From Eledone cirrhosa (Eukaryota), in the NCBI GenBank assembly GCA_964016885.1, contig OZ024741.1:269948001-270012000 (forward strand): DNA of 64,000 bases. Reading direction: 5' to 3'. This document shows, piece by piece, positions 9,855 through 60,221 of the stretch. A program made the translations under genes and the position numbers. Below the pieces are notes generated by a model. That model did not search any database. It saw only the letters and a list, made by a program, of their open reading frames with translations, and was not told the origin of the DNA. The stretch's first letter is position 1; each line of letters starts with the position of its first letter.

Positions 9855-11275
9855 TGGCAGTTTAGCCCGGCGTTGCTCGGGTTTGTTCATTTGCTATGAA
9901 AAGTTTCATACAGGTAAACGTGGCTTGAAAGCGAATAAGTTTATCAATTAAGTGCATAAAGCAGTTGAACCGGTTATTAAAAGTTACGAACCAATTAGTA
10001 TTTTGGACAATCAATGATGGGTTAATAATCTTCTAATACCGAATTTAGCAGACCAAAGTTGCAAGATGTTGGCCCTGATACCGCTGGGTGTCAGATCTGT
10101 CCGCCATGGGTGACCCTACCAGGAAATAGTTTTCCAGACGGCATAGCTCCAACACCTCCAACACCTGCACCAACATCTATAGCACCTCTTTGTAGACGAT
10201 ATTGCGTGTCATCACTTGAGGAGTGTAAGCAAAAAGTCCATTCCTGCTCCCTACGCGGGAACAAGCAACATAAAGTTGGCATGGGAGAAGCATGGCTCCC
10301 CCAAATGGATGCCTGCCACCGACAATGTTTGCCCTTGTGACTTGTTAATGGACATGGCAAAACATGGTCTCACCGGGAAATGGGATCGCGGAAATCGAAC
10401 GGGATATCTGACGCCGAAGGGAAAAGGTTCATCCTTGGCAGTGAATTCGGCAGAATTGCCAGAAGTACAACACTATGGGTGTTGTCATATTAATATTTAA
10501 CCAATTAAAGTCGTAAAAATAAATAATTTAAACATTCCAATTCATATGTCTATAGCATTAATATATTGTATGAAGTGTTATTTTGCGGGTTGTTATTTGC
10601 CCCAGAAAAGCCGTATGTCTATACGGAACTCCAATGACTCCCCCAGCAGTTAAATTATAGAGAGGGGGAATAATCTATTATAGAGAGAGGGAAGAGCGAC
10701 GGAGAGAGTAAAGCTAAGAAACTATAGGGAGGTGTGTAAAACAGTGTTGTCATATAGAGTGAAGAGCGACAGAGAGAGTAAAGCAGTTAAATTATAGAGA
10801 GTGGAACGATCTATTATAGAGAGAGGGAAGAGCGACAGAGAGAGTAAAGCTATGTTTCTTGTATAAAGTGATGTGTTGCTTAGTTTTCAAAGTTTATGTC
10901 GCGTTCCTGAACGAAGTTTTGTCGCTGTTGTAAACTGTAATGGTGATAGGGTAGTAGAAGGAGGCATTAACCGTTTAAAGAGAGTTGCAGAGGAGATTGA
11001 GAGGGGAGTAGAGGGAGGGATGAACCTTTTAAAGAGAGTTGCAACATGAATGTAGTTTCATAGATTGTTGAGGGTAGTAGAGAGAGGCATTAAGCGTGTA
11101 AGAGAGAGGGTTACAGCATGTATTTAGTTTCATCGATTTCTTTAGTTTATTACGCGTTGACCATCGTTGGTAAATTTGGAGCACATTTGGGAAAAAATCA
11201 TCAAAATCGGTAGAGAACTGTGGAAATGCATAAAAATCATACACACACACAGACAGACATCTTCCGTTTTATATA
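9853..11275 (-). mobile_element. Internally deleted Helitron
   Basis: The minus-strand 3' end is cccgagcaacgccggg...gCCAG, the same hairpin type as 5581-6500. The 5' end (tataaaacggaagatgtctgtctgtgtg) resembles the other Helitron. It contains a RepHel fragment. Confidence 0.85.
10177..10410 (-). pseudogene. Helitron RepHel PIF1-like helicase C-terminal fragment (frameshifted)
   Basis: Translates across frameshifts as FPVRPCFAMSINKSQGQTLSVAGIHL / EPCFSH / QLYVACSRVGSRNGLFAYTPQVMTRNIVYKEVL*, matching PIF1 motifs V and VI. Confidence 0.9.
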
Positions 11276-11288
11276 TATATATATATAT

Positions 11289-11371
<83 letters not shown>

Positions 11372-11373
<2 letters not shown>

Positions 11374-14300
11374 TAACGAAATGACAGGAGGCTGGATTTG
11401 TGTAAATCCGTGAAAGGTTTATTATACTATGATCATTTCAATGACCGGGTTCCGTATGAATCCGGTGATATCATCAGGTATTCGAAATATAATACGTGAA
11501 TGTAATAGGTAAAATCCATGGGGCTGAAAATCGAGACCCGAGGGCGACCGCTATTCTGTTCCTTCAACCTCAGCCGGTCGCCCTGGAATGACGTGGCTAA
11601 ATTTTATAGTATGCTACTACCGGTCAGATGAACGAAAACAGAAAGGGATGGGAGCATAAGTTAACGTCGATCCCATGACACAAGGTAAAAGAAAGAAAGA
11701 AAGAAAGGAAGGAGAGAGAAGAAGGGGGAAGAAAGAAGAAGAGAAGCCAGGGTTAATGTCAGCTAAAAGAGGAAGGCAACTACTACTGGTCAGATATAGG
11801 CAAGCAAGAGGGGGAAGGAAGATAAGTCTGCGGGAGGAAGACAGGAGGAGGGGAGAAGAGAAGGAAGGGAAGAGAGAAGTAGAAAAGTAAGGGTTGATGG
11901 CTACAAGAAGGAAGATAGAAAGAAAGAGGAAGAAAGGTCGATATTAATGTCAGACCACAGTCAAGCCAGGAGTGGCGCGAGAAAATTTTCACAGGGACCC
12001 GCATCTTAGCAGAGATGAATATATTGGGAGTCAGTGTTTTACAGTGTTTAGACTTCTAGGATGAAGTTAAAAAAATTAATAATCAATATTCAATATTAAA
12101 GAGGTTAGAAAATTTAAAGTTCAACAGTTTAACATTTAATTATATAATAGTTCCGATTTGTTCTGTAATTTAAAGGTACTATTTGGCGGTTAAAACACCG
12201 GCCGCGCCCCGGGCCCCATGGCGAACTAAGCCACGCCGAGTATTTTCATTTACTGAAAGAAGAGGAAATTTATTTTTCCAAGCACTCCAGGTGGGCTCGT
12301 TCGCCAGGGAGCCGGTCGCGCCGCCATCAAAACCCACCCAACAGTCCGACAGAAAGTTGGAACTTTAAAATTTTGCTTAGAGAAGTAAAAGAGTAATGGT
12401 TGATAGCTACAAGAAGGAAGATAGAAAGAGAGAGGAAGGAAGGTCGATATTAATGTCACACCACAGTCGGGCCAGGAGTGGCGCGACAAAATTTTCACAA
12501 GGACTCGCATCTTAGCAGAGGTGAATATATTGGGGGTCAGTGTGTTACAATGTTTAGACTTATAGGATGAAGTTAAAAAATTAATAAATTAATAATCAAT
12601 ATTCCATATTAAAGAGGTTAGAAAATGTAAAGCTCAACAGTTTCAGGTTGATATATCTAATAGTTCCGATTTGTTCTGTAATTTAAAGGTACTATTTGGC
12701 GGTTAAAACACCGGCCGCGCCCCGGGCCCCATGGCGAATTAAGCCACGCCGAGTATTTTCATTTACCGAAAGAAGGGGAAATTTATTTTTCCAAGCACTC
12801 CAGGTGAGCCCGTTCGCCAGGGAGCTGGTCGCGCCGCCGCTAAAACCCACCCAACGGTCCGACAGAAAGTTGGAACTTTAGAATTTTGCTTAACTCTATC
12901 GGATGAAGTTGAAAGAATTCAGAATAACATTATAAAACTAAGGAGTAAGAGGATTGAGAATTGAACAAACAGAAAATTGAAGATTAAACATTCAAATAAC
13001 TTCTATGAGGTTTTGGGTTGCGGGGTTTAATTAAATAGTCTTTTATGAAGAAACGTTAATTGTATTATGTAGATCTGTAATTTATCCTAGTGGGATGTAG
13101 AGTACGGGATATAGTCGTGTAATGTTTAATTTTTGTTCTCAGGAGGAGACATTCTAGTGTCGTGTGCTAATGGGTACAGGTCCCAATGTGAGGAGTAGAA
13201 ATACATGGATACATAGAAGTGGAATACGTGGAAGAGCACATTGGTACAGCAGAGGTATAAATATATAAACATATCAATATATAGGTATAAACATGTAAAT
13301 AAACCAACAAGAGTGGTGTTGGAGTAAGATGGAGAAATCAGGACATTAATACAGCAAACAAAGATGTGAAGATATAGATAAACAAACAATAGTCGTTGTC
13401 TAGTAAATGTAGAGTTCGAGACACAGGAGAAATATAATATAGTTCAGGTTGTATTATTTATGTTCCCAGGGGGAGATATTCCAGTGACGTGTGCTAAGGG
13501 TACACGCGAGTAAAAGTCTGAATAAGGAAAGTAGAAAGTACATGGATGTATAGAGGTAGAATACGTGGAGGAGCATTAATACAGCAAATAAAGATGTAAA
13601 GATATAAATAAACAAACAAGAGTCGTTGTCTATTAAATGGAGAGTTCAAGACACAGGAGAAATACAATATAGTTCAAGTTGCAGTCAGATAATGCATATA
13701 GATGTGGAAACAGTGTGTGTTCGAGTCTGGGAGTTCAGTGTGAGTTATACATGCCCAGAAGTATAGGGTAGCGATTTAGTTAATACAGTGCAGTACAATA
13801 CATGTTATGGTCCAGTCCGTGGAGTTTCGTCGAAGTTCGGATATTCTGTGAGGGGAGTAGCAAAGGGCCAGGCGAAGGCACCGGGTAGCCAAAGTTCGAA
13901 TTGTGGTTAGATATATTCAGTCCCATGCCGCTGTTGATTATTACATTTTGAAGTGCTCAACATTTCAGGAGCGTTATTTATTCAGGTTTGAGGTTCACCA
14001 CTGTATAGAGCTGGTCTATTCCGTATGGTCAATCGTAATGCAATAATATAGAGAGTACTCAACGTAAAGCAGTTCAACCGTCTTTGTTTTTGCCCCATGG
14101 ATTTTACCTATTACATTCACGTATTATATTTCGAATACCTGATGATATCACCGGATTCATACGGAACCCGGTCATTGAAATGATCATAGTATAATAAACC
14201 TTTCAAGGATTTACACAAATCCAGCCTCCTGTCATTTCGTTATAATATTTAACTCCGTAATAGCACCACCAACTACAAAAACAAAGACGGTTGAACTGCT

Positions 14301-14390
14301 TTACGTTGAGTACTCTCTATATTATTGCATTACGATTGACCATACGGAATAGACCAGCTCTATACAGTGGTGAACCTCAAACCTGAATAA

Positions 14391-14392
<2 letters not shown>
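11372..14392 (-). mobile_element. About 3-kb non-coding HHR-bearing element with inverted pseudo-LTR architecture, inserted in (TA)n
   Basis: 11372-11523 is the reverse complement of about 14093-14245, and 13976-14092 is the reverse complement of about 14276-14392. There is no long ORF. Internal direct duplications are about 510 bp (11900/12410) and about 240-330 bp (13145/13471). Confidence 0.8.
14135..14192 (+). ncRNA. Minimal type-I hammerhead ribozyme (mirror copy on the minus strand at 11424-11481)
   Basis: auac CUGAUGA u-aucaccgg..ccggucau-u GAAA ugauca UA guau. Helix III is the palindrome AUGAUCAU, and AATAAA follows immediately. Confidence 0.85.
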
Positions 14393-14424
<32 letters not shown>

Positions 14425-14499: not shown

Positions 14500-14533
14500 T
14501 ATATATATGTTTATATATATATGTTTATATATA

Positions 14534-14958
14534 ATGGAAAAATTTGAACAGGAACAAAACAGAGAGGCAGTACAACGAATGTTTATTAATTTCACGCTCT
14601 GGAGAGTGGGGTGTTGGTGGGGAACGACGTTTCGGGCATAAGCCCTTCCTCAGGTGAGAAGTGTGTGGGAACAGAGTTCAAAGGGTGTGTAGGGGAGTGG
14701 TGGAGAGACATATAGCGAAAGGAAACGGTGAGAATGAAATTAAAAATAAAAATAAAAATAAAGCATGATCAAAATAAAAGGAATGAAATAAAAATAAATA
14801 TAAAAGCATGATCAAAATAAACTGAAATTAAAAAGGGGTAAAACAGGTGGTGGAAGGATGTGGGGTGTGTAGGGGTGGTGGCGGGTGGAGTGGGGAGAGG
14901 GAGACGGGGTGTCCAAGCGGGGGGGGGGGCTGAAGGTGGTGTGTGTGTGTAGGTGTAC

Positions 14959-15012
<54 letters not shown>

Positions 15013-15280
15013 ACTCGACCTGCCTTTCGCTGTCAGGTCTCGTCTCTTGTCACTGATCTGTTTACGACTCTTGCCGGGGAGAAAGGACTCGAGGGCGACG
15101 TTCACGAACCGCACGCCCTCTCGTACCAGCTGTTCTCCCTTAGACTCAAGGATATCGATCTCCGTGTTAGACCAACAACCTTTTCCCCTCAGACGTGGAG
15201 CGGGCTCGGGCCCAGCCCGCGCCAGAGCGCGTTTCTCTCTCTTCCTTTCCAGTTCCTTCGCATAACTGGCGATTATGTTT
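14534..15280 (-). mobile_element. Chimeric insert in (TA)n: R2-like Myb fragment, (CA)n, and a PLE-like 3' end with a partial HHR core
   Basis: The minus strand reads CWSNTEIDILESKGEQLVREGVRFVNVALESFLPGKSRKQISDKRR. CUGAGGA agggc-uuau-gccc GAAA cgucg lies at 14623-14653, with AATAAA downstream. Confidence 0.55.
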
Positions 15281-15417
15281 ATATATATATATATATATAG
15301 TAGAAAAAATTATATTTTTACCAAACTTTTACCACACTATGTATATATATGTGTGTCTGTGTGTGTATGTATGTATGTATGTATGTATGTATGTATGTAT
15401 GTATGTATGTATGTATG

Positions 15418-20200: not shown

Positions 20201-20212
20201 GATATATATATA

Positions 20213-20650
20213 TACGATATTAAATAAATGGAAACTATATTTATAAAACCATATTTATTTCATTATATATATTTCAGGGATATCATATTAAAAATATGTT
20301 ATGCCTTCTTCAGACAAAATACAATATAAACAGTCTTATAAATAGATAGATTCGACATACCTTTCAACTTCGACTTCTATTTGAAAAGTTGATTTCAAAT
20401 AGAAGTCGAAGTTGAAAGGTATGTCGAATCTATCTATTTATAAGACTGTTTATATTGTATTTTGTCTGAAGAAGGCATAACATATTTTTAATATGATATC
20501 CCTGAAATATATATAATGAAATAAATATGGTTTTATAAATATAGTTTCCATTTATTTAATATCGTAAATATACTCCAAATACTTGTTGAGTGCTTTTATA
20601 TCAGTTATAAATATTTACTCGTTGTTAACCCAACAATTTAAATAAAACTT

Positions 20651-20653
<3 letters not shown>
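20213..20653 (+). mobile_element. Fold-back HHR element, family E: 174-bp arms plus an 87-bp tail
   Basis: 20213-20386 is the reverse complement of 20393-20566. The HHR at 20461-20520 reads uuugu CUGAAGA agg..ccu GAAA uauaua UA augaa, mirrored at 20259-20318. Confidence 0.85.
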
Positions 20654-20682
<29 letters not shown>

Positions 20683-20685
<3 letters not shown>

Positions 20686-21160
20686 AATGAGTTGAAGACT
20701 TAGTTGACTTATGTGTTGACTTAGTTGACTTATGTGTATAACAGATATAAAGCACTCAACAAATAATATTTATCTGGAGTATTATAATAATAATAATAAT
20801 AATTGTTTCTATTTTTGGCACAAGGCCAGCAATTATCCCAGTGTATTATTGGTACTTTATTTTATCGACCCCGTAAGGATGAAAGACAAAGTTAACCTCG
20901 GCGGGATTTGAACTCAGACCATAAAAGGCCATAACTCTTTGCTGTAAAGCATAGCGTCCGACCCTCTACCGATACTGCCGATCCACCGCCCTAATAATAA
21001 TTGTTTCTACTTTTTGGCACATAAATGAAAGATATATACTTTATATCATCACTATTTATTTCATTATATATATTTCGAGGATGCAAAAATGTATGTTTAA
21101 CATAAATTAGAACATGCCCTCATCAGACAAAATATATATGAGATGTATAATTTTGTCATG
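20683..21160 (-). mobile_element. Family E-related HHR element interrupted by a SINE family A copy (20803-20991)
   Basis: The minus-strand HHR at 21060-21131 reads uuugu CUGAUGA gggcaug..gcauccuc GAAA uauaua UA augaa. The tail motif gttgagtgcttta lies at about 20748-20760. Confidence 0.75.
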
Positions 21161-23575: not shown

Positions 23576-23825
23576 ACACATATATATATATATAATATAT
23601 ATAATATATATATATATATATCTTTCATATACTGTAACGATTGTGTTGTTATTTGTTTACCTTTTACACACACACATACACACACACACACACACACATA
23701 TATATATCTACTGTAACGATTGTGTTGTTATTTGTTTACCTTTTACACACACACACACACACACACACATACACACACACACATATATATATCTACTGTA
23801 ACGATTGTGTTGTTATTTGTTTACC

Positions 23826-23873
<48 letters not shown>

Positions 23874-37355: not shown

Positions 37356-40300
37356 TCAGGCCATTCTTGCCTCTCTCACCCATCTTCCAACAAAATTCTG
37401 GGAAGAGAGCACTTCCCTTTCTACCCTGATTTTCCTTTTCAAATGAAATTTGAAAAAGTCAATCAGGGCATCACCGAAGAGGTAAGTGCTCGTCTTCATC
37501 AGCCCTTTCAAACGTGTCCACCATACTATCTCTTTCGCCATGGCCACCAGACAGATAAAAACTTCCTGCCCTTCCCGGCTAAAGGAAGAGGGCGGGGAAA
37601 TCCTCTCGATGGACTCAGATGATAGCCGGATCCGTCCTACACGCGACAGAAGGTGTTCGACATAAACCCACAAGTCAGCAAAGCTCGGACACTGGACGAG
37701 TGCGTGCAGGACGGTTTCGTCGCCCTGCGCGCATCTCGGATATGCCCGGCTGACGGCACCTCCATGCCTGTAGAGTTTATCCCGAACTGGCAAAGCTCCT
37801 CGGTAGCACTGCCAGGCCAGAGATTTCTGGAAGTTGTCCATAGACCCCGGCCCGAAAGTTCTTCCGAAGAGATTGGCTAGTTGATTTTCGTCGACGCCTA
37901 GAGTTTCCCCAAGTACGTCGTCGCTCTTCCCCTCCACTAATCCTCTATAGAACGCCGAGGTGGAGTTTCCACCGATCACATTGCCCGATTGGTCGAGGGC
38001 TGTGAGCGCCTGAAGACATTCCAGTCTCCAAGCGCTCCCTCTCGGTCTTCGCTTTACCCAGGACTGCAGCTCCGTCAAGGAAGCGAGCTGGGAAAAGACG
38101 CGTCTAGCAAACGGCGACCACACCTGATCACCGTCGAGGAAGAGGTGGAGATGTCGTAGTCTGAGAGCGTGTCTGCGCATCATCAGCCACGGCATGCCCA
38201 GCCCTCCACGTAGCGGGTGTTGACAACAGATGGACCGCCTGACCATCGGAGCGCGTCCCTTAAACAAAAAGCGAAAGAGCAAACGCTCCAGCGCAGTCAG
38301 GCGGGGCTTAGGACAAGGTAAGACGGCCAGGCGGTAACAGATGACGGACGCGATGTACGCGTTAGCCACCTCCGCTCGACCTTTCGGGAATAGCTTCCTC
38401 TCCGCCCATTTCTGGGTGAGAGAAGCCACCCTGCTCGTCCCCTCGTCCCAGTTTTTTTCCGTCTGGAGGTCCGGACCGAACTAGATCCCTAGCAATTTAA
38501 CCGGTCCGTCCGTCCAGCGCCCGACGACGCTGTTGGACGGCATGGACCTGCCTCTCCAGGTGCCGAGCTGCAGGCCCACTGACTTTTCCTGATTGATCAT
38601 TGCTCCTGTCACCGCTTCGTATTCTCTTAGTGTAGTGCCGATCGCCTCGATGTGTTTGGCGTTCGACACCACTACTGTGACATCGTCCGCATATGCTGAC
38701 ACGGATCTTCCGCATCCTAGTTCGCGCGGGACGCCCCTCAACGTCTCCAGTTTGTGCAGTAATGGCTCGAGAGTCAATACGTACAGGAGGGACAAGAAGG
38801 GACATCCTTGGCGGACCGAGCGCATGATGTTGAACGGTTCTGAAAGGTGACCGTTCACTCTCACCACAGAGCAGATGTCGCTGTGCATGGCAGTTTTCCA
38901 GCCTCTGAAGACGAGCCCAAAGCCAGCCGCCTTCAGGGCTGCCGCTAGGTAAGCTTTCGACTGATCTAAATTGATCAAGGACCCACCCGTGCCAGGAACC
39001 CTAGCAACCCTCTCTACGATGTATCGCATGAGGTGGAGGTTGTGGTGGATGGATCTGTCGGGAATGGCGCACGTCTGCGCCTCTCCCACCAGACCACAAA
39101 CGACAAGCGCCAACCTCTTTGCTATCACCTTCGCCAAAATCTTGTGCCTAAAATATGTGCCTGAAATGATCTATGTTATCCTCCTTTCTCAGCAGCGCCA
39201 CCGCTCCTCGGCTCACAGAGCTGGGAATTCTCCCGTTCTGTTGCCAGTTGCAGTAGACGTCCGCCAAGAGGCCTCCGAACGAGTCTGGCATCTGTACGTA
39301 AAGTTCATAGGGCAGACCATCCAAACCAGGCGATTTACCCCTTGTGCAGCCAGTCATTGCCTCCCGTACTTCAGCGGCTGTTATCGGCTTTTCGCAACAC
39401 TCCGCCTCAGTGGCCGAGAGCTGCGGCAGTCCGTCGAGGTAGACACTAAAGTCCATCCCTCGACCCGGCCCGCCGCTTCGTGGGCCACCAAAGACCGGAT
39501 CGTGTCTTTGTTGCCACGACGCGCCTCCGCCACTCAGGCCCATTGAACGGCTTTCGTCCCCTCGTGTCTGAGAGCACGCACCCTAGCTCTGACAACGCAG
39601 CCTTCGTGCTTTACATTGAAGAATTGGTCAAGGGCCAATTTCGCCGCAAGTACGTCGGTCGCGATGCCTTTGCTAAGCGCCTCATCTAATTTTCTAACTA
39701 ATTCTCCCTCTGCTCTATTTTTCTCTATTGCTAAAGTCTTACTAAACCTAATGGACTCTATTCTAATTGCTCTTTTCAGAGCAAACCACCACTTGTTGTT
39801 GACAATGGCCCCCGTCAACGCCCGCTTAACTAGTTCGCTAATCCGGTCTCTGTAGGCCTTGCGCGCTGGTAAGGACGCGTTTAGCTTCCAGTAGCCGGGT
39901 CCTCGTCTATGAAGCCTATCTAAGTCAAGCACACAGATCACGAATTTGTGGTCCGTGTAGCTGACTATCTTGAATTGTGGACAGCCTATGCTAGACCTAT
40001 CTATTTCCCTACAAAATACTCTATCTAGATATGATCTGGATGACCCTATGCGATTTGTCCAAGTCCACATTGGTACATTCGGGAAATCCATTCGGTACCT
40101 GTCAGACAGTTCAAAACGTCTGAGCAGGTTGGTGAGACTCTTGCACCCTCCTTCCCTATCCACTAATCCCACACAATCCCAGCGTGCATCTAAGATCCCG
40201 TTCCAGTCGCCCACTAACACTAAAGAGCGGGACGTTCGAAGAAAGGTCTCCAGACGCCGGAAGAAATCAGGCCGCCCTGCTCCTGTCGGGGCATAGACGG

Positions 40301-40628
40301 CCACTAACCTGAAAGCTTGGCCGTCCCCGCTGGTCACGTCCAGCACCACCAAGTTACCGTCTGGGTCCAGGAAGATGGCCCGTATGGCAAGATCCAAACC
40401 TCTCCGAAAAAGCACAGCAACTCCTCCCCCCGATCCCGGACGGCTGGGAGATGCGTACACATCGTAGCCGCCGAAGATCGGTGCGAAAGCCTGTGCTTCG
40501 GAGATTCTGGTCTCGCTGATGGCCACTACATCTATGTTTAGTAACCTGAGGTCGTTGAGCAGGTGGCCCTGCTTCCATGACGACCCCAAGCCACGCGCAT
40601 TTATGCTGCCTATTCTGAGTGAGGTCAT
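37356..40628 (-). pseudogene. Tx1 ORF2: AP endonuclease, reverse transcriptase and C-terminal Cys/His motif (disrupted)
   Basis: APE motifs SINARGL, SET, VYAP, GDWN, YLDR and YTDH; PGYWKLN; KSPGLDGLPYELY; RT motifs VRQGCP and AYADD; C-terminal CPRC..ETVLHALVQC (intact in the 3' duplicate). The ORF is split into four pieces. Confidence 0.92.
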
Positions 40629-40662
40629 GTTGAAAAGGAGTGGAAAAGATGGGAAAGACCAC

Positions 40663-42695
40663 TTACCTTACTTCTCGTAGGGGAAGGACAGTTTTTCCAT
40701 CCTTTTCACTGCTTGTGGCCTCCTCAGGAAGGATGTCCTTATAAATCCTCCTGGAGAGTGCTTGTCGGAAGTCTCCGATGTCTTTGGGGAATTTTTGCTT
40801 TAGTGTCATGTACGTTTTCTGTGTGATGCGAGTGATTTGTATGTGTGGAGGTGGTGTGAATTTTGGGGTTGTTGTGTAGTCTTTTTCTGTGATGCTGGTG
40901 TTGTGTTGGATGTAGTGTAATAATTGCTTGTTGTTCAAATTTAATGCTGTGTAGTGTGTATCGTTTTGGTTGTTTTGTTTTGTTTGCGTTTGTTGTGGGT
41001 TTGTTTCTGTTTCGCATTTTGGTGACTTTTGTGGTGTAGGTGATGGTGGTGTTGGGGTTAATGATGGTGATGGTGTTGGTGTTTGGGTTGATGGGGTTGG
41101 TGATGCTGGTGTGGATGGTGGCATATCTGTCCTAACTTTTTTGTTTCTTAATTTATTTGTTTCCCTCTGTATTTTGTTTTTGGAGGGGGAAGGAAGAGAA
41201 TTTTTTCTTTTTGGGTTTCTTTTTTTTTTCCGGATATCGTTTCCCACTCCTCGTCGTCACAATCTGTCTCCAGTTGTGATAGGCCGGGGAGTGGAAAATC
41301 CTCCACAGCCGTTAGTTTTGGTTGTGGCGTGGTGGATGGTGTAGGCGCTGGTGCTAGTTCTGAAGCGTTGGGTGATGGTGGTGTTGGTTTTGCTGGTGGT
41401 GGTGTTGGTGTTGGTTTTGTTACTGTTGCTGGGGTTGTTGCTGTTATAGTTGCTTCTGTTGTTGCTGCTACAGTTTTTGCTGCCATCTCTGCTACTGGTG
41501 GTGTTGATGGTTGTGTCACTGGGGTGGGTAGGAGAGGTGGCCTCAACCTTTTAGCCTGAGGGCAGAAAGCCCTTAGGTGGGTTCCTTCACCACAAACGAC
41601 ACACCTAGGTCTTCTGCCCTCGACAATTACCGTGAGGTGGCTGCCGTCAGTGAGGTCTATTACCTCTGGGATCTCCTCAATGCTTTTTTGGTCCGCTTGG
41701 ATCAGGAGCTCCATCCCAGATCCGGACCAGTTCTCCTGCTTTTCTTTTGCTATTGATATTATTTTCGTGTTGGCTTCGATGCCGGCGAGGACAGCCGCTA
41801 TTAGCCAGGGAATTTCGATGGCCGGTGGAACGTGGGTCACCCTGATCTTTACGAGTCTCTGGCCACAATAACTTGGGACGAGTGTGAAGTCGTCACTTCT
41901 TAATGGGGCCATGGAGTGTTCTCTAGCCTCCTCTGGTGTTTCAAAGAACACGTCCACGGTTCCATACTTTTGCCCACGTCTGATGTGGGTTTTTCTTGCC
42001 CACACATGTCCCAAAGCTTTTTGGATTTGGGACTCGGATGCCCGTTCTACTCGGCGCGATTTTACATTTATTGTTCTATACGACACGGTGCATAGGCGCC
42101 GATGCTCCATTTTATTAGGTGGGGGGGTGAGGCTGACCCTGTACCCATCTTTCTTTACCATTTGTTTGGCATTTTCTAAATCCTCCTGAGTTACCGTATA
42201 TGCTTCGAACTGTTTTGCTACTATTGCAAAACTGAGGGGCGTTTTTATAATGTCATTGTTGTTGTTGTTGCTATCGTTATTTGTGTTAATATTAATTTTA
42301 GTTTCAGTTGTGGTGGTGGTGACGTCAGTCGTCTTTGGTGGGGAAGAGTCCATTTTGCTTGATTTCATTTCGACATCACGAGTTAATTTATTTTTTTCTT
42401 CTTTTGTTTCTGTTGTCGCGGTGGTGGTGGTGGTTGTCGCGGTGGTGGTGGTGGTGGTGGTGGTGGTGGTTGTCGCGGTGGTGGTGGTGGTGGGGGCTTT
42501 AACACATGCAGTCATTGGTAATGGCGGGAAATGAATGTCTGCCTGAGACAAATTTAAAATATTGCTAGTGCTTATATTTTTTTTTGTGTTGGCAAACGTA
42601 TTAACATTTACAATGGTGGTGTCGGTGTGAGGTGTTAATTTGTGAGGAAGGCTTTCAGCTGCTTCGTGCAGAGGTGAATTAGCCATTTTTTTCAA
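40663..42695 (-). pseudogene. Tx1 ORF1 (gag-like, CCHC knuckle; frameshifted near 41200)
   Basis: CVVCGEGTHLRAFC fits CX2CX4HX4C, with Pro/Thr-rich linkers, directly upstream of ORF2. Confidence 0.85.
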
Positions 42696-42918
42696 AGAAA
42701 TTTTTTTGATAATAATAAAAGTTTAAATTTTGGGCACAAGGCCCCAATCTTTTTGGGTGTCCTTTTCGGAAAACAATGTATGTGCGCTTATAAACAGTTA
42801 ACAATAAAATTTTCCATAAATGACAATTTTTAACAAACGGAAATAACAAACCTTTGCGGAGCTCACGATGATACGATTTACTACGTGGGTCGCCAATAAT
42901 AATAATAATAATAATAAT

Positions 42919-45900
42919 AAAGAAGTCCTTGAGGCTTTCTACACTGCCATGTACTACCCATCAAATACATCGAATACAGAACAAACATATATCAACTGGA
43001 AAAAGAAACATCCCGAAAACAGAGGCTATATTGACAGTAACAAACTAGCCAATATACGAAGAAATATTGTAAGAAAAAAGTTACTAACTGATATAGAAAT
43101 TGATCAGATCAAGCTAGTAGCACAAAGTCAGCGAAGGGAAAATGAAGCATGTGTCAGTGAAAACGAGGTAAACTGTAACACTTCGAATCCCAGGGTTGGG
43201 GCGGAATCACTGGCAACAGAACAAATTAAAGAAAGGATCGAAAAAGTGGAGGGAGTGCATGCTCAGGATGAAACTCCAAATGAAAATAATGAGATCGTAA
43301 ATGATAAAGAAATGAATGAGAATGAACTTGCCAACTTGAAGGATGAAATTATGATCGAATGGATGAAAATGAAAGAATCTGACATGGGGGAACGAGACAC
43401 CCTCCCTAAGATCCAGAACTCCAAACAGAACCAAAAGATAATACACAAGACTAACATAATTCTCAAAAACATTATCATCACAAACAAACTAAACATTACT
43501 GACTTAAATCATCTCTATTATGCATCGGCTAAAGTCACCACTCACTTATGTGGAGTGAAGATGAAAAAACAAAGGAATTCCCACAAGAAATCTACTTGGC
43601 AAGATAACATCAATCGCCAAATAAACCTTCTCCGATCTGACATAGAAATTTTAACAAACTATAAAGTAGGTGAACATGTTAAACAAACTAAACTTAGAAA
43701 ATTGAAAAAAAAGTACAGTATAAGATCAACATGTGACATAGACATGCTGATAGAAACAATCAAGCAAAAAGTGTCGGCCAAAGCTGCTCGTATAAGACGC
43801 TTTGAAAAATGATCTAGATTCTATAAGGACAATAATATGTTCAAAAACAACCAAAGAAACTTCTACAGAAAAATTGGTAAGTCAACAATAACTGCTAAAT
43901 CAATACCACTCAAGGAGGAAGTGCAAGAATTCTGGGAAAAGATCTGGGCCGAAGAAAAAGTTCATAACATACATGCCCCATGGATAGACAGACAAATGAA
44001 AGATACAGCTCACCTTGAGGAACAAACATGGGAAAATATAACAGTTGAACAGTTGCGCTTGGCTCTAAGAAAAACCAGCAAATGGAAATCCCCAGGAAAA
44101 GACAAAATACAAAACTTTTGGATAAATGCCTTCACAGAGTCTCATGAGCTGTTAGCCCAACTTTACAATGAAATAGTTAAGGAGCCAGAAAAGATACCAT
44201 CATGGCTAGTTAACGGCATTACATTCCTGCTACCGAAGAATGATGAGACAAACAATCCCAAAAATTACAGACCGATAACTTGCTTGACCACAATGTATAA
44301 AATTTTAACATCAGTCCTAACTGAATACACATATGACCACCTGATAACAAATGACCTATTTCCCATTGAGCAGAAAGGGTGTAAACGAGGCTCATATGGC
44401 TGTAAGGATCAGCTTCTGGTTAACAAAATGATACTGGAAGATGTCATAATAGACACAAAAATCTATCGATTGCTTGGATAGATTATAAAAAAGCATTCGA
44501 TAGTTTGCCACACAGTTGGATTGAAAAATGTTTAGAGATTTTCAAAATATCCCCCGTTGTCAGAAGGTTTTTGTCATTCAGTATGAAGACATGGAGAACG
44601 ACACTCCTTTTGAATAGTGAAACAAAATCACTGGAAGCTGGAGAAGTTAATATTAATTGTGGAATTTTTCAGGGTGACTCTTTATCACCGCTTTTATTCT
44701 GCATCGCACTTATACCATTAAGTAAAATGCTCAATGAAACAAAACATGGATATAGAGTCTATGACAAAACCATTAATCACCTGTTCTACATGGATGACCT
44801 GAAACTATTTGCAAAAAATGATGAACAATTGCAAGGGCTATTATCCACTGTGAAGCAGTTCAGTGATGACATTAAAATGGAGTTTGGACTGGATAAATGC
44901 GCCAAAGCAACGTTCACCAGAGGAAAGCTGCTGAAGAGTTCAGACATTAATCTTGATCGGGGGAACGTGATAAGAGAGCTTGGTCAAGAAAAAACTTACA
45001 AATATCTAGGTGTTTGTGAAGGAGACGGAATCAAGCACTCGACAATGAGGGAAAGGATAAGGAAGGAATGTTACCGCAGAGTCAGAGCAATCTTAAGAAC
45101 GGAATTGAATGCAAGGAATAGGATCGATGCCATAAACACGCTTGCCATACCAGTAGTAACCTACAGTTACAATGTCATCAACTGGTCAAGCACAGAGATC
45201 CGTAGGCTCGATACAAAAATCCGAAAATTCTTAACCATGCACAGAATGCATCACCCTAAGGCAGACATAGATAGAATATATCCCCCTAGGAAAGAAGGAG
45301 GACGTGGGTTAATCCAGTTAGACATTGCGTTGAAAACTGCAACAATTGGATTATTCACATATCTAAGGGAATCACATGATTGGATGATCAAACTCGTTTT
45401 GAAACACGAAAGCACCAAAAGATCATATTCCATTACAAAAGATGCACAAAGATACAGTAATGGACTACAAATTTCAGAAGTCCCATTTACTGCTGAAATG
45501 GAAAACACAGAAAAAGCAAAGCAGGTAAAAGTAACTGCAAAGAAAGAACTGCTACAGAAACTGGCTAAGAAATGGCAAGAAAAGCCTCTGTATACCCAGA
45601 GCGAGCTAATAATCCTTATGTTGACAAAACTTTAACCCATCAGTGGTTGGCATCCTCTGGACTGAAATCAGAGACTGAAGGACTGATTATATCGGCACAA
45701 GATCAGTGTCTGCCAACAAAAAATTACCAAGCCAACATAATAAAAAATGGGTGCAGCCCATTATGCCGTGTATGCAAAAAACAACCAGAGACCATTGACC
45801 ATATAATTTCAATGTGCAGTCATATAGCTCCAACCGAATACCTAAGCAGGCATGACAGAGCTGCACAATACATACATTGGATAATGTGTAAGCATTTTGA

Positions 45901-46469
45901 CCTGCCCCATCAAAAGAATTGGTGGGAGCATCAACCACCTCCCATACTTGAAAAAGATCACATCTCAATCTTGTGGAACTTTAGCATCCAAACAGACCGA
46001 AAAATAGATGCAAATAGACCTGATATAATATTGAAGGACTTTCAAAGGAGGGTATGCCTGCTAATTGATATGTCTGTTCCAATAGACAAGAATGTATCTA
46101 TAAAAACATTTGAAAAATTGAGCAAGTATAAGGACCTGGAGATAGAAATTGGAAAAATCTGGAAATTGAGAACTAAAACAATACCAGTGGTTGTAGGCGC
46201 TCTGGGAATGACACCTAAGGGGTCTAACGACTACTTATCGCAAATCCCAGGAAACCCGCGTATAGGAGAAATACAAAAGATAGTACTAATGGGAACTGCC
46301 CATATACTAAGGAAGATCCTGTCAATATAAGTACATCACAAGTCTAAACACTAAGGATGCATGTGTGAATATGTATGTTCTTTCTTGAACATGGCGGACT
46401 TGTTGTCTCTTGAGGTCACTGGTTGTGACTTGGTGATAACTCGTATGAACATAAAGCAAGATAAATGCA
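42919..46469 (+). mobile_element. R4/Dong-clade retrotransposon, family 1 (5'-truncated; one stop and two frameshifts)
   Basis: [44 protein letters not shown] and RPDI..IDMSVP..KLSKYKDL. (AAT)n lies on both sides (42895-42919 and 46470-46549). Confidence 0.92.
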
Positions 46470-46549
<80 letters not shown>

Positions 46550-46714
46550 GGGAAGAAGACGCACGAGGTGACGGAGGTCATGAAATCGCTCCCGTAAGTT
46601 TTGAATTTTTAACATATTTAAATCATTTGTGAAATAACAACTCTTAGTACAAATGCTACGTAAAGCACCCGGCTTGAGCCCCAAAAAAATTCGGACCCAA
46701 AATATATTGTTATA

Positions 46715-47358
46715 AGGCTCAAATATTCAAATATTCAACTTTGTATTGTACACTGTATATCCAAAAAAAAAATGGCTATAAATGGAAGAAGAAGAACCCC
46801 CCCCCCTCCTCTCCTCTGGCTACTCTATATAGGACAGCTAAACTCACCAACACCAGAAACTAGATACACCACCCACCCCATCATCTGTGTACACTGAACA
46901 CAACAGCATTTTCACCTTCACCGCCACCGCTCACTACGGCCATCATTACCACCACTATCCCATCACCGCCGCCACCACCCCTTGACTCCTTCACTGCTGC
47001 TGCCACCGCTACAGCACCATCACTACAGTAATACGGCTCAAATATTCAAATATTCAACTTTGTATTGTACACTGTATATCCCAAAAAAAATAAAATGGCT
47101 ATAAATGGAAGAAGAAGAACCCCCCCCCCTCCTCTCCTCTGGCTACACTATATAGGACAGCGAAACTCACCAACACCAGAAACTAGATACACCACCCACC
47201 CCATCATCTGTGTACACTAAACACAACAGCATTTTCACCTTCACCGCCACCGCTCACTACGGCCATCATTACCACCACTATCCCATCACCGCCGCCACCA
47301 CCCCCTGACTCCTTCACTGCTGCTGCCACCGCTACAGCACCATCACTACAGTAATACG
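46715..47358 (+). repeat. About 320-bp direct tandem duplication upstream of the intact R4/Dong ORF
   Basis: ggctcaaatattcaaatattcaactttg...cactacagtaatacgg occurs twice, nearly identical. Confidence 0.9.
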
Positions 47359-47928
47359 GTCGCATCACCGCCACCACTGCCTCGGTATCGACATCACCAC
47401 CACCACTGTCTCAGTATCGCCAACGCCGCCAGTCTCTGCTGGCTACCACTTCCACATTATAGAATTCCTACTACTAACAAAGAGGAAGGCATCAAAATAT
47501 ATAGATAGACTCAAAAGAAAAAAGAAAAAAGAAACAACAAAAGCAGCACAGCAACAACAGTAAAAAACGAGAAAAACAGAGAAAAACAAAAACAAAAAAA
47601 GAAACCCCAAAAACGTAAAGAAAATAAGAATGAAGAGAGAAGCAGGCGGACGGACAGAGAAGAGGGGCGAAAAAGTAAAACTTAAAAAACAAAAACTAAG
47701 TCAGACATTCGAATACTACATTACAATGAAACTTATGCTTATTCATTTTTGGGGCCCTTTCTGTCCGTGTGTTTGTTTGTTTATGTGTGTCCGTATACAG
47801 CGTGGTGATAATGCCACACAAGGGCCAAGTGGGATGGCGGATCCACAGATGGCTATGTAAACATACATTCGCCAATCCTCGATAAGAGTGTTTAAATATC
47901 GAACATAAACAGTTCGAATAACGGTGAA

Positions 47929-50900
47929 ATGGAGACTAGAACGTCATGTGACAGACTCTCACCCAACAGGTGCCCCCTGGCTCAGCAGCAGGAACCTGAC
48001 TGTCAACCAAATACTGCTGATGTTGGAGGAAGAAGAAGAAGGAAAGGGGCCAGAACCAACTGGACGAAAGAATTGAATAGAACTGTTATGCAATGCTACC
48101 TGAAAAGTAACCCCAAGGAGAGGGGCTACAGGAGACGGATGCATAACATCTGGAACGAGATTGGTTTATTTAAATTAGATGAACAAAAATTGGCCGGGCA
48201 GGCTCGGGTAATAAGAACTAATGGGTGGATAAGCGAGCTGGAACTGGAGGAACTGAGCAGAGAGAATGGCTTGGAGATGGCGGGTGTAGTATGCCAGACA
48301 AGCGAGACGGCGGGAAATGAAGGTGAGGAGGTCCTGAGAACGGAGGAACCACCCGAAGCAGACAATGATCTGAATACTGAGATAAATAATACCTGGAACA
48401 GAGAAACGGCCACTGAGGAGATGAATGCTGACGGGCTAGGACAAGATTCGGTTGACATCCTAAATTTAGTGGTAGATGAGTTGAACAATGATAGTGGGAG
48501 ACCTATGAACCTAAGATTTGTAGACAGGAAAAAGTTAAAAGAAACAACAGCTAAGGTAAACAAAGTCATCCCATACCTTGAGGCGAGGAGTCTTCACCAG
48601 TGCAACAATATCCTCAAAGCAACAGCAAATACGGTGAGGAAACTACTTGGTATAAAAGCGAGAGGAAACAACAGACAAGAAAGAGCAGAGCCGTGGTGGA
48701 AGAAGCGACTGAGTGGGCAAATCGGGGAAATGAGAAATGACATAGGAAAGCTTGAGTCACTACTGAATGGGACACTAAAAAACATAGGCACTAAAAATAG
48801 ACTGGAAATAAAATACAAAACTAGGAGTAAAAAGCTAAATATTATCATAGAGGAATTGAAGCAACGCATTGTAGCAAAGAGTGCCAAAATCAGGCGATAC
48901 GAGAACAGAGTCAGTCAGTATAAACAGAACCGCATGTTCGACAACAACCAGAAGATGCTGTTTGGACAGCTTGAGGGGAAAGAAAGAGGCAACGACTTGA
49001 TCCCTGGGGCGGAACAAGCTAAAACATTCTGGAGAGGAATATGGGAGCAGGATGTTAGACACAATGCCCAGGCAGGGTGGATTGAGACAGTACAGAGGGA
49101 GATCGGTGAGCAGGCACAGCAACAGACTGATTTGAGTATCACAGTTGAAACTCTTAAGGGGCAAGCCAAAAAACTAACCAACTGGAAATCACCAGGCCCA
49201 GATGGTGTGCAGGGGTATTGGATTAAACATTTAACATCCCTCCACCCGAAGCTGACGGCCATGTTCAATGACTGCTTGGTGTCGGGTGAGGTGCCAGAGT
49301 GGTTGACAAAAGGTACCACAGTTCTGATAATGAAAGACCGAATCAAGGGTAATGATGTTACCAACTATAGACCTATCACATGTCTGCCCGTAATGTGGAA
49401 ACTGTTGACGAGCATTGTATCTGAGGAAATCTACCATCACCTCCACACAAACAACTTGTTGCCGGACGAACAGAAAGGATGCCGAAAGAAGTCACGTGGT
49501 ACAAAGGACCAGTTGCTTATTGATAAGATGGTAATGGGGAATTGCAGGAGGAGACACACTGATCTTGCCATGGGATGGATAGACTACAGAAAGGCATTTG
49601 ACATGGTGCCTCATTCCTGGATCACCAAAAGCCTGGAGATCTTCAGGGTGGCAGATAACATCAGACAGTTGCTGGGCAGGAGTATGGGGTCCTGGGAGAC
49701 AGAGTTGACATCAACTGGAGTATCCTTGGGAAGCGTGAAGATCAAGAGAGGTATCTTCCAGGGAGATAGCCTGTCCCCTCTGTTGTTTGTCCTTGCCCTG
49801 ATGCCCTTGACCATTATGCTGCGAAAAGTGAGAGCAGGATACAAGTTGGGAAGGGGAGAGCTTACCATCAATCACCTCCTCTTCATGGACGATCTTAAGC
49901 TCTTCGGGAAAAGTGAGAAGGAGTTGGATGTGCTTGTTGACACTGTCCGTATTTTCAGCAGTGATATATGTATGCAGTTTGGTATTGGTAAATGTGGAGT
50001 CATTGTGATGAGGAGGGGTAGGTTGAGCAGAAGTAACGGGATCCAGATACCTACAGGTGAGATGATAAAGGAAATTGACTCTGAGGAAGGATACAAGTAT
50101 TTGGGCGTTCTGGAGGCTGATGGCATAAAGAACAAAAAAATGAAGGAATTGTTAAGAACTGAATACATTCGGAGAGTAAGGAGCGTATTGAAGTCACATC
50201 TGAACAGCAGAAATGCCATAAGCGCAGTAAATTCCCGAGCTGTGTCTATTATTAGGTACAGTGCGGGAATTCTGAGATGGAATGTTGCTGAACAAAAAGA
50301 AATGGATAGGAAGACTAGGAAGCTATTGACTATCTACAACATGTTCCACAAGAGGAGTGATGTCGATAGACTCTACCTAAGGAGATCTGAGGGTGGAAGA
50401 GGTCTTATCAGCATAGAGGACTGTGTTCAGATGAAGAAAAACAACCTATACAAATACGTGACCTATAGTAAGGAGCCAATGCTCAGAGCTGTACTGAAGG
50501 AGGGGACAGTAGGCCAGGGGATACCCAAGGAGGAAATAACATCAAGGAGGAAGAGCAGCCTTAAGGGAAAATCCCTTCATAGTACCTTCTTTGAGAAAAC
50601 TGAATTTAGAGATCCACAGACATGGAACTGGTTGAGAAGAGGAGACCTCAAAAAGGCTACAGAAGGAATGCTAATGGCTGCGCAGGAGCAGGCCCTCAAA
50701 ACGAAGTGGTTGAAGCACCATATCTACAAGGAGGAGGCTAGCCCACTGTGCAGGATCTGTGGAGAGAGAGAGGAGACTGTGGCTCACATTGTGTCCGAGT
50801 GTAAACACCTAGCCCAGACCCACTATAAGGGCTGGAGACACGATGTGATGGGCAGGGTGATCCACTGGCACCTGTGCAAAGTAAACAATCTACCACATTC

Positions 50901-51321
50901 TGAGAAATGGTATGAGCATAGGCCAGAGGCGGTGATGGAGAACAGTCAGGTGAAGGTGCTGTGGGATTTTAGGATACAGACGGACAAAAAACTGGAACAC
51001 AATAGACCTGACCTGGTGGTTGTGGACAAAGAAAAAAGATCGTGCCTGATTGTGGATGTGGCCTGCCCGTTCGACACGAGAGTGCAAGAGAAGGAGAGGG
51101 AGAAAATTAACCGATACCAGGACCTAAAGTGGGAGGTGAAAAGGATTTGGAACTGCCATGAAGTCAAAGTGATCCCGATTGTCATAGGCGCACTGGGGAC
51201 TATCTCCAAAGGTTTCCAGGGATGGTTAAAGAAAATCGGCCCCTTCACGCTTTTTGGAACGCTTCAAAAGGCATGCTTGCTTGGAACGGCAAGAACCCTC
51301 CGATACGTCCTGAATATCTGA
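47929..51321 (+). CDS. Intact 1130-aa R4/Dong-clade ORF (Myb-like N-terminus, RT, CCHC knuckle, RLE), family 2
   Basis: Uninterrupted ORF with [47 protein letters not shown] and RPDLV..VDVACPFD..KINRYQDL. A short 3'UTR is followed by an (AAC/AAT)n tail. Confidence 0.95.
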   Translation: METRTSCDRLSPNRCPLAQQQEPDCQPNTADVGGRRRRKGARTNWTKELNRTVMQCYLKSNPKERGYRRRMHNIWNEIGLFKLDEQKLAGQARVIRTNGWISELELEELSRENGLEMAGVVCQTSETAGNEGEEVLRTEEPPEADNDLNTEINNTWNRETATEEMNADGLGQDSVDILNLVVDELNNDSGRPMNLRFVDRKKLKETTAKVNKVIPYLEARSLHQCNNILKATANTVRKLLGIKARGNNRQERAEPWWKKRLSGQIGEMRNDIGKLESLLNGTLKNIGTKNRLEIKYKTRSKKLNIIIEELKQRIVAKSAKIRRYENRVSQYKQNRMFDNNQKMLFGQLEGKERGNDLIPGAEQAKTFWRGIWEQDVRHNAQAGWIETVQREIGEQAQQQTDLSITVETLKGQAKKLTNWKSPGPDGVQGYWIKHLTSLHPKLTAMFNDCLVSGEVPEWLTKGTTVLIMKDRIKGNDVTNYRPITCLPVMWKLLTSIVSEEIYHHLHTNNLLPDEQKGCRKKSRGTKDQLLIDKMVMGNCRRRHTDLAMGWIDYRKAFDMVPHSWITKSLEIFRVADNIRQLLGRSMGSWETELTSTGVSLGSVKIKRGIFQGDSLSPLLFVLALMPLTIMLRKVRAGYKLGRGELTINHLLFMDDLKLFGKSEKELDVLVDTVRIFSSDICMQFGIGKCGVIVMRRGRLSRSNGIQIPTGEMIKEIDSEEGYKYLGVLEADGIKNKKMKELLRTEYIRRVRSVLKSHLNSRNAISAVNSRAVSIIRYSAGILRWNVAEQKEMDRKTRKLLTIYNMFHKRSDVDRLYLRRSEGGRGLISIEDCVQMKKNNLYKYVTYSKEPMLRAVLKEGTVGQGIPKEEITSRRKSSLKGKSLHSTFFEKTEFRDPQTWNWLRRGDLKKATEGMLMAAQEQALKTKWLKHHIYKEEASPLCRICGEREETVAHIVSECKHLAQTHYKGWRHDVMGRVIHWHLCKVNNLPHSEKWYEHRPEAVMENSQVKVLWDFRIQTDKKLEHNRPDLVVVDKEKRSCLIVDVACPFDTRVQEKEREKINRYQDLKWEVKRIWNCHEVKVIPIVIGALGTISKGFQGWLKKIGPFTLFGTLQKACLLGTARTLRYVLNI

Positions 51322-51407
51322 GGCTGCAGGTAGTGGCTTGATATTCAATCCAACGGACTTTCCAGTTAACCAACATCAATGACTGAGATTCAAGGAATAA
51401 CAATAAC

Positions 51408-51443
<36 letters not shown>

Positions 51444-51447
<4 letters not shown>

Positions 51448-52036
51448 CCTAGCCCAGACCCACTATAAGGGCTGGAGACACGATGTGATGGGCAGGGTGA
51501 TCCACTGGCACCTGTGCAAAGTAAACAATTTACCACATTCTGAGAAATGGTATGAGCATAGGCCAGAGGCGGTGATGGAGAACAATCAGGTGAAGGTGCT
51601 GTGGGATTTTAGGATACAGACGGACAAAAAACTGGAACACAATAGACCTGACCTGGTGGTTGTGGACAAAGAAAAAAGATCGTGCCTGATTGTGGATGTG
51701 GCCTGCCCGTTCGACACGAGAGTGCAAGAGAAGGAGAGGGAGAAAATTAACCGATACCAGGACCTAAAGTGGGAGGTGAAAAGGATTTGGAACTGCCATG
51801 AAGTCAAAGTGATCCCGATTGTCATAGGCGCACTGGGGACTATCTCCAAAAGTTTCCAGGGATGGTTAAAGAAAATCGGCCCCTTCACGCTTTTTGGAAC
51901 GCTTCAAAAGGCATGCTTGCTTGGAACAGCAAGAACCCTCCGATACGTCCTGAATATCTGAGGCGGCAGGTAGTGGCTTGATATTCAATCCAACGGACTT
52001 TCCAGTTAACCAACATCAATGACTGAGATTCAAGGA
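51444..52036 (+). mobile_element. 5'-truncated R4/Dong family 2 copy (RLE plus 3'UTR)
   Basis: Matches 50804-51396 with about five substitutions by eye; (AAT)n lies on both sides. Confidence 0.92.
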
Positions 52037-52099
52037 ATAACAACAATAATAATAATAATAATAATAATAATATTAATAATAATAATAATAATAATAATA

Positions 52100-55000: not shown

Positions 55001-55340
55001 ATGTGGCCTGCCCATTCGACACGAGAGTGCAAGAGAAGGAGAGGGAGAAAATTAACCGATACCAGGACTTAAAGTGGGAGGTGAAAAGGATTTGGAACTG
55101 CCATGAAGTCAAAGTGGTCTCGATTGTCATAGGCGCACTAGGGACTATCTCAAAATGTTTCCAGGGATAGTTAAAGAAAATTGGCCCATTCACGCTTTTT
55201 GGAACGCTTCAAAAGGCATGCTTGCTGGGAACAGCAAGAACCCACCTATACGTCCTGAATATCTGAGGCTGCAGGTAGTGGCTTGATATTCATTTCAACA
55301 AACTTTCCAGTCAACTAACATCAATGACTGAGACTCAAAG
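52100..55340 (+). mobile_element. Older 5'-truncated R4/Dong family 2 copy (frameshifts, 15-bp deletion, premature stop)
   Basis: Colinear with 48139-51396, followed by an (AAT/AAC)n tail at 55341-55409. Confidence 0.92.
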
Positions 55341-59600: not shown

Positions 59601-60221
59601 TCTAGCATTAAAGTCACCAAGCACGATGACTTTGTCTGCCTGGGGGATATTTCTTAAAACACCTTTCAAGGCATGGTAAAAGGACACCTTTTCCTCATCG
59701 ACAGAACTCATAGTTGGAGCATACACACTCACCAGGGTAGCATATCTTCCCTTGTCCAGCGGAACTCTCATGGACATAAGACGCTCACTAATCCCTACTG
59801 GGAATTCTTCTAATTTGTTCACAAGCACAGTCTTAACAACAAATCCTACCCCAGCCTCTCTTCTGGTTCCTTCATCTCTTCCTTTCCAGAAGAATGTATA
59901 TTCTCCACAAAATTCCGTAAGATGACCATCTCCAGCTAGCCTCGTCTCAGATAAAGCCACGATGTCAAGATCGTAACGTCGAAGCTCCTTTGCAACAAGA
60001 GCGGTCCTTCGTTCAGGACGCCCCAAGGAATCCCTGTCAAGCAGCATCCGTACGTTCTAGCAGCCAAGAATAAATGCCTTGTTTGGCTCTATTACAATGG
60101 CACGATGACGAGCGGGCCCAGGCTGTGATAACCTGGGGCCCCTGCCCTTATTTTTAATGATCTTTTTTGTTCCAGAACCTAAATTGCCAATTATCTCTTT
60201 TATATTGTTCTGGAACATCAT
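56700..60221 (-). pseudogene. RTE ORF: APE, RT and three C-terminal C2H2-like fingers (disrupted)
   Basis: NVRMLLD..RPERRTALVAKEL, SETRL, GDFNARVG, HLLDYVL, WTDHRLV, NYRGISLL, GVKQGD, LLYADD and QRLRWSGH. The fingers are of the form CxxC..KAGL.SH, three times. Confidence 0.92.

Follow-up and report, generated by a model that had tools for sequence, protein, structure and literature searches.

Introduction

Penelope-like elements (PLEs) that encode an endonuclease (EN), among them Penelope/Poseidon, Neptune, Nematis and Hydra, leave insertions that are partial tandems with 5' truncation; many carry an inverted, likewise 5'-truncated copy at their 5' end. A tail of 30-40 bp is present at one end, and (TA)n tracts serve as targets (PMC8557442). 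The same pattern is reported in a second study, in which head-to-head is the usual orientation, unrelated sequence between pLTRs is mobilised in trans, and self-priming is favoured for head-to-head junctions (PMC3846280). In vitro, AT-rich DNA is nicked by a PLE protein, which extends both strands and uses uncleaved RNA; the RT of an anole PLE starts internally at two sites bounding the tail, mostly 111-118 nt into the ORF, which is 85-92 nt after the hammerhead cut at position 26 (PMC11167929). Metazoan PLE hammerheads are described as having a palindromic helix III, dependence on dimers and low activity in vitro, and the G10.1-C11.1 pair is described as highly conserved (PMC4209133).

Here we describe a locus in a 64-kb window, by which we mean the whole stretch of DNA that was analysed. 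Its focal element is very probably a young, non-autonomous PLE derivative of 2.75 kb. The architecture, the hammerhead type and the trans-mobilised cargo are already known for PLEs; the long tail extension is the feature that stands out.

Results and discussion

Anatomy of the insertion

The element lies between two (TA)n tracts, at 11270-11369 on the left, within which any target-site duplication is unreadable, and at 14387-14413 on the right. Reverse-complement alignment confirmed, with small coordinate shifts, the order A', interior, B, A, spacer and B' given in a preliminary description of this DNA. A' (11370-11524, minus strand) is the reverse complement of 14092-14246 at 154 of 155 positions, with a sole mismatch at 11410/14206, and B (13975-14092, minus strand) matches B' (14276-14393) in the same way at 118 of 118 positions, in agreement with the earlier statement that the arms differ at about one position. 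In PLE terms, A' is the 3' pLTR of a body copy that continues through an ORF-less interior (11525-13974, minus strand) to its 5' start in B, and A (14093-14246, plus strand) is an inverted, 5'-truncated pLTR that stands head-to-head with the body at the body's 5' end, with 1 nt of microhomology at the joint. The unit, read as B'-interior-A plus the gap, comes to 2723 + 29 = 2752 nt.

A and B' are separated by a gap of 29 nt (14247-14275), which had been described as a 30-bp spacer. The gap is present, but the real tail consists of spacer and B' together (14247-14393, plus strand) and measures about 146 nt (144-147 nt), roughly four times the published 30-40 bp. The gap is shorter than the tail because the body copy failed to reach that stretch of it, and B therefore represents the distal 118 nt of the tail.

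The element resembles EN-bearing PLEs (PMC3846280; PMC8557442) in its head-to-head inverted, 5'-truncated pLTR, its 3' extension on one end only, its (TA)n target, the hammerhead in its pLTR, and in having truncated ends that are far commoner than interiors. This match to the published pattern bears out the proposal that the element integrated recently, in the PLE manner, and left an inverted copy at its 5' end. In contrast to those PLEs, the element is ORF-less, its tail is long (about 146 nt here, with 89 and 117 nt at two other loci of the window), and it lacks a direct 5' pLTR, so that part of the tail is duplicated instead.

Hammerhead motif and the ends of the copies

A hammerhead-like motif at 14135-14192 (plus strand) in A is mirrored at 11424-11481 (minus strand) in the 3' pLTR. 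It combines a CUGAUGA/GAAA core with a helix I of 4 bp, a helix II of -9.1 kcal/mol and a self-complementary helix III; the cut triplet AUA ends at 14188, and cleavage is predicted after 14188 in A and after 11428 in A'. A descriptor of the motif, composed after the motif had been seen, matched none of 1000 Markov-sampled sequences. Rfam returned no hammerhead at gathering score in the whole 64-kb window, and none at E<=10, where only chance miRNA-like matches appeared, on microsatellites and on the B/B' hairpin. Unconstrained folding likewise failed to yield the hammerhead fold (z -0.24 and -1.16). Given the negative Rfam result and a helix II without the G10.1-C11.1 closing pair, the motif is not the textbook hammerhead that it was first taken for. 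Instead, it is a PLE-type variant of the type I hammerhead, with a palindromic helix III, a position in the pLTR and putative cleavage activity. A helix III variant in one loose end of the sequencing runs described below still self-pairs via two G-U pairs, which is the single, weak hint of selection on the motif.

Counted from the predicted cut, the ends of the inverted copy lie at -95 and +205, and the body copy begins at +88 of the preceding unit and ends at +58. The cut coincides with none of these four ends and is read through in both copies; the idea of a hammerhead-delimited unit is thus unsupported. Since both copies read through the cut, the template would have been either uncleaved RNA or a re-ligated circle. 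A tandem or circular template of about 2.75 kb had been proposed for the element, and the end-to-start junction of that proposal is present, but a circular, retrozyme-like template is unneeded. The permuted order is accounted for by a linear pLTR-tail-body-pLTR transcript, which is an ordinary PLE partial tandem.

In anole Poseidon PAc (PMC11167929), as here, two 3' ends bound the tail, an AC-rich stem-loop lies about 85-92 nt after the cut, and the cut is read through. The focal element differs in that +88 is the 5' stop of the body, in that its 3' ends lie at +58 and +205, and in that it encodes no protein.

These ends also bear on a giant non-LTR retrozyme, in which a dimeric hammerhead would cut a multimer into 2.75-kb monomers, circles would be ligated, and RT would yield permuted copies. 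We consider this account distinctly unlikely. It fits an ORF-less unit with one type I hammerhead and an end-to-start junction, a helix III that is self-complementary and keeps pairing in the G-U variant, and the proposal of circles for PLEs (PMC4209133); reading through the cut would likewise be expected of a circle after re-ligation. However, no end lies at the cut, and where non-LTR retrozymes have tandem short monomers, each with a type I hammerhead, the focal locus has a single 2.75-kb unit and no array. Published retrozyme monomers measure 51-972 bp in a search with an upper period bound of 1000 (bioRxiv 10.64898/2026.07.22.740005), or about 300 bp, with canonical hammerheads (PMC7229834). 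Thus the element shares with metazoan non-LTR retrozymes the lack of ORFs, a type I hammerhead and kinship to PLE pLTRs, but its unit is about 3 to 50 times longer and its hammerhead is non-canonical. A combined version, in which the 2.75-kb unit would be a giant retrozyme RNA, cut by dimeric hammerheads, circularised and copied by a PLE lineage, with RT loading on a conserved tail hairpin and priming 90-150 nt apart, is also unlikely. If this combined version held, PLE bodies would be linked to small retrozyme circles, and a compact cis signal would mobilise kilobases of cargo.

The interior

An autonomous PLE has an ORF for a telomerase-like RT with a GIY-YIG endonuclease. The longest ATG ORF of the focal element is 86 aa, and neither Pfam on its six read-through frames (no family below E 0.31) nor protein searches of the three minus (sense) frames found an RT or GIY-YIG remnant tying the interior to PLEs. 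Of these sense frames, one gave 0 matches by phmmer against 1.84 billion representatives, and the other two, searched over residues 1-720 with word seeding, gave matches in 0 of 3803 and 0 of 8000 candidates, which were limited to lengths of 470-1498 aa. The three plus frames were covered by Pfam alone, and decay by frameshifts could evade every protein search. Within these bounds the claim that the element has no RT or endonuclease ORF holds.

The preliminary description overlooked a tandem duplication of 506/513 bp in the interior (11873-12379 and 12379-12892; 91% identical) and shorter repeats at 13123-13681. The duplication carried no coding signal: in all six frames, 3-5 synonymous and 13-14 non-synonymous codons were counted, with no synonymous bias.

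Cargo between pLTRs has precedents in Adineta Pen3a-NRPS (PMC3846280) and in non-autonomous Chlamys such as MRC1 (PMC8557442), in which non-PLE sequence is moved in trans. By contrast, the focal family is multicopy, occurs under at least two organism labels, bears a hammerhead and has a cargo without a recognisable gene. A literature search, mostly of freely accessible main texts, found no multi-kb, hammerhead-bearing, non-autonomous PLE family of animals.

On the sense strand, a GC-rich hairpin (11541-11584) directly precedes the pLTR. Its predicted fold is non-significant. Among the loose ends of the sequencing runs, relatives retain one arm of this hairpin amid differing surrounding sequence.

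Copies in sequencing runs

Copies of the element were sought in four sequencing runs out of 15 (X1, X4, X5 and X13 among those cited); the runs with small shares, X6-X11, are not among the four, and figures from the runs refer throughout to the matches listed (letter rows, loose ends and pieces). Depth was recorded over 30, 29, 24 and 30 of 30 bins of the element in the four runs, and run X1 gave 2885 records in four identity bands (827, 1034, 862 and 162). The whole unit, interior included, is therefore a multicopy family, found under at least two organism labels, and not a single-copy locus.

In X1, summed depth was 1.0-3.2e5 over A and 2.6-4.0e4 over B/B'; most of the interior had about 0.9-26e3, and the bin just inside B had 402. 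Such sums over contigs do not measure copy number, and the RAD reads may stem from a small number of loci. The steep loss away from the 3' ends has the shape of fixed 3' ends with 5' truncation, and it suits fixed starts better than the rolling-circle copying that a giant retrozyme would use. Recurrent 3' ends occurred near +58 and +205, and depth fell beyond 13975. In X13, 93 molecules end at 14246, and a further 203 turn loose behind 14248 and enter an (ATC)n repeat; a contig from X5 (organism B) covers 14187-14389 and continues into (TA)n. Together with the depth gradient, the (TA)n and (ATC)n ends are the 5'-truncated, dispersed copies in AT-rich or microsatellite targets that are typical of PLE insertions. 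Read ends in X13 also piled up at 14350 and 12683; this pile was discounted as probably a RAD library effect.

A partial tandem of the pLTR, inverted at the focal locus, was found in direct order in X4. There, a contig of 838 nt contains 56 letters of the A end and the gap, followed by B' and the interior (joint 14092/14275). A-spacer-B' is accordingly the end-to-start junction of the unit, as had been proposed, with the direct order seen in one short-read contig, which may be an artefact of the assembly graph because its path includes a 117-nt repeat.

Within 11873-13033, joints in the runs connect 12135 with 12641, 11935 with 13028, and 12137 with 13033. These joints point to relatives in which a single repeat unit is present or a larger internal stretch is deleted, and may partly reflect mapping between repeats.

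Gradation of depth is also where a non-autonomous DIRS-type or TIR DNA element would differ. In such an element, A'/A would be the ITRs and B an internal complementary region (ICR), and the layout does resemble the ITR/ICR definition (PMC8969392): B lies inside the element and is complementary to its right end, the left end is mirrored by A, and TA sequence flanks the whole. However, no separate internal copy complements the left repeat where it starts on the outer side, relatives continue beyond the inner edge of A into the interior, and the runs suggest that 5' truncation and inversion points vary among copies. The hammerhead and the pairing of a long with a short 3' end are PLE traits. Fixed TIRs in other copies had been named as the outcome that would indicate a DNA transposon; instead, the two outer ends do not form inverted repeats, and depth is graded, not flat. 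We regard this assignment as extremely unlikely.

Whether the inverted end could be an assembly artefact, i.e. a mis-join of pieces of an abundant repeat, was considered from the junction itself. Among the matches listed (24 pieces), no record spans the inversion junction 14092/14093 by at least 31 letters, B and B' are 100% identical, and tandem and inverted PLE structures often break assemblies (PMC8557442). Against a mis-join, the two arms, which differ at one base, carry identical alleles at three sites where most copies in the runs differ. Moreover, the loop is not a mirror of the adjoining sequence, as it would be in a fold-back chimera, and two smaller loci of the window show the same head-to-head design with unequal arms. 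An artefact of this kind is thus very unlikely. The alleles common to the arms fit a single donor lineage, and the runs may represent another population.

Proposed order of events

The reading that we prefer is a PLE family member that would be moved in trans by the RT-endonuclease of a hammerhead-bearing PLE helper. Its template would be an uncleaved linear transcript of the form pLTR-tail-interior-pLTR. A (TA)n tract would be nicked on both strands, and each would prime cDNA internally on the RNA. One cDNA would start at the short site, +58 of the downstream pLTR, and extend for 2.72 kb until it reached the tail hairpin, in the loop of which it ends (+88); the other would start at the long site, +205 of the upstream tail, and stop at -95. 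The two cDNA ends would then be joined head-to-head through the 1 nt of microhomology. Such a two-primer scheme resembles twin priming of L1, and our literature search found no paper linking twin priming to PLEs. The scheme draws on the in vitro behaviour of PLE protein, with extension of both nicked strands and internal RT starts on uncleaved RNA (PMC11167929). We give this order of events a slight preference. The identical sequence would also arise from a complete palindrome if 183 bp had later been deleted in one of its arms, and self-priming is the origin favoured for such junctions in PMC3846280.

Tails and comparison loci

Two further head-to-head hammerhead palindromes lie in (TA)n tracts of the window. 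At 20207-20653 the arms end at +49 and +138 and the tail is 89 nt; at 26021-26421 they end at +33 and +150 and the tail is 117 nt. Both loci have unequal arms and share a tail motif with the focal element, whose long 3' end lies at +202 to +205. Each of the three long tails starts just before this motif, ACTCC...GTTGAGTRCT. For a 10-letter half of the motif the window has 5 matches, where 0.33 would be expected, an enrichment that is generous since the motif was chosen from those very sequences. The five matches represent four loci, the fourth of which (20751-20760) lies downstream of a hammerhead at 21126, past an intervening insertion. Among 11 hammerhead-like cores checked, the motif follows downstream in 4, the sequence runs out into a (TA)n tract before any motif in 4, and it is absent in 3. 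The same literature search, with the scope given above, found no such motif and no PLE tail longer than 30-40 bp.

In the focal tail the motif forms a predicted hairpin (14252-14311, plus strand) with an ACUC:GAGU closure and an AC-rich loop (14275-14288), and the body copy starts within this loop, at 14276. ACUC:GAGU pairing is predicted in 4 of 4 tail folds; the pairs are invariant across the four and thus give no covariation support. Compared with shuffled sequences, the focal hairpin folds with z -2.53, and the other three do no better than their shuffles (z -0.9 to -1.1). The hairpin is a candidate signal for loading RT.

These results reduce the claim of a circular, ribozyme-delimited template to known PLE anatomy, and the locus in itself is unsurprising. 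Its interest lies elsewhere. Three head-to-head insertions with tails of 89-147 nt and a common hairpin motif would allow the RT start to be predicted and the bound RNA element to be located. Moreover, a young multicopy family whose pLTR and tail enclose about 2.4 kb of non-coding cargo suggests that little cis sequence is needed for a PLE passenger.

Other features of the window

Further hammerhead-like sequences occur nearby. The region 20683-21126 (minus strand) is a further PLE end with a hammerhead and the tail motif described above; a SINE-like insertion of roughly 200 bp, next to an (ATT)n tract, interrupts it. A compact hammerhead-like motif of a different family (14523-14660, minus strand), with a short GC-rich helix II and a 4-nt palindrome, ends in the (TA)n tract to the right of the focal element. 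Cores at 726, 19583 and 26676 (all plus strand) are each followed by (TA)n; those at 726 and 19583 have a 6-nt palindromic helix III and are without the tail motif.

Around the element, the sequence is typical of an animal genome rich in microsatellites and contains LINE-like RT frames, labelled from their translations. Long, partly broken LINE-like RT/endonuclease frames occupy 37359-42722 (minus strand), 42847-55167 (plus strand) and 56703-60056 (minus strand), and include a frame of 1141 aa (47896-51318) and its near-duplicate (52010-55167). A 165-aa frame at 14815-15309 (minus strand) has a putative resemblance to the Myb-like N-terminus of R2/R4-type retroelements. Finally, a tandem array at 23630-24567 consists of 11.5 copies of an 83-bp unit built round (AC)n.
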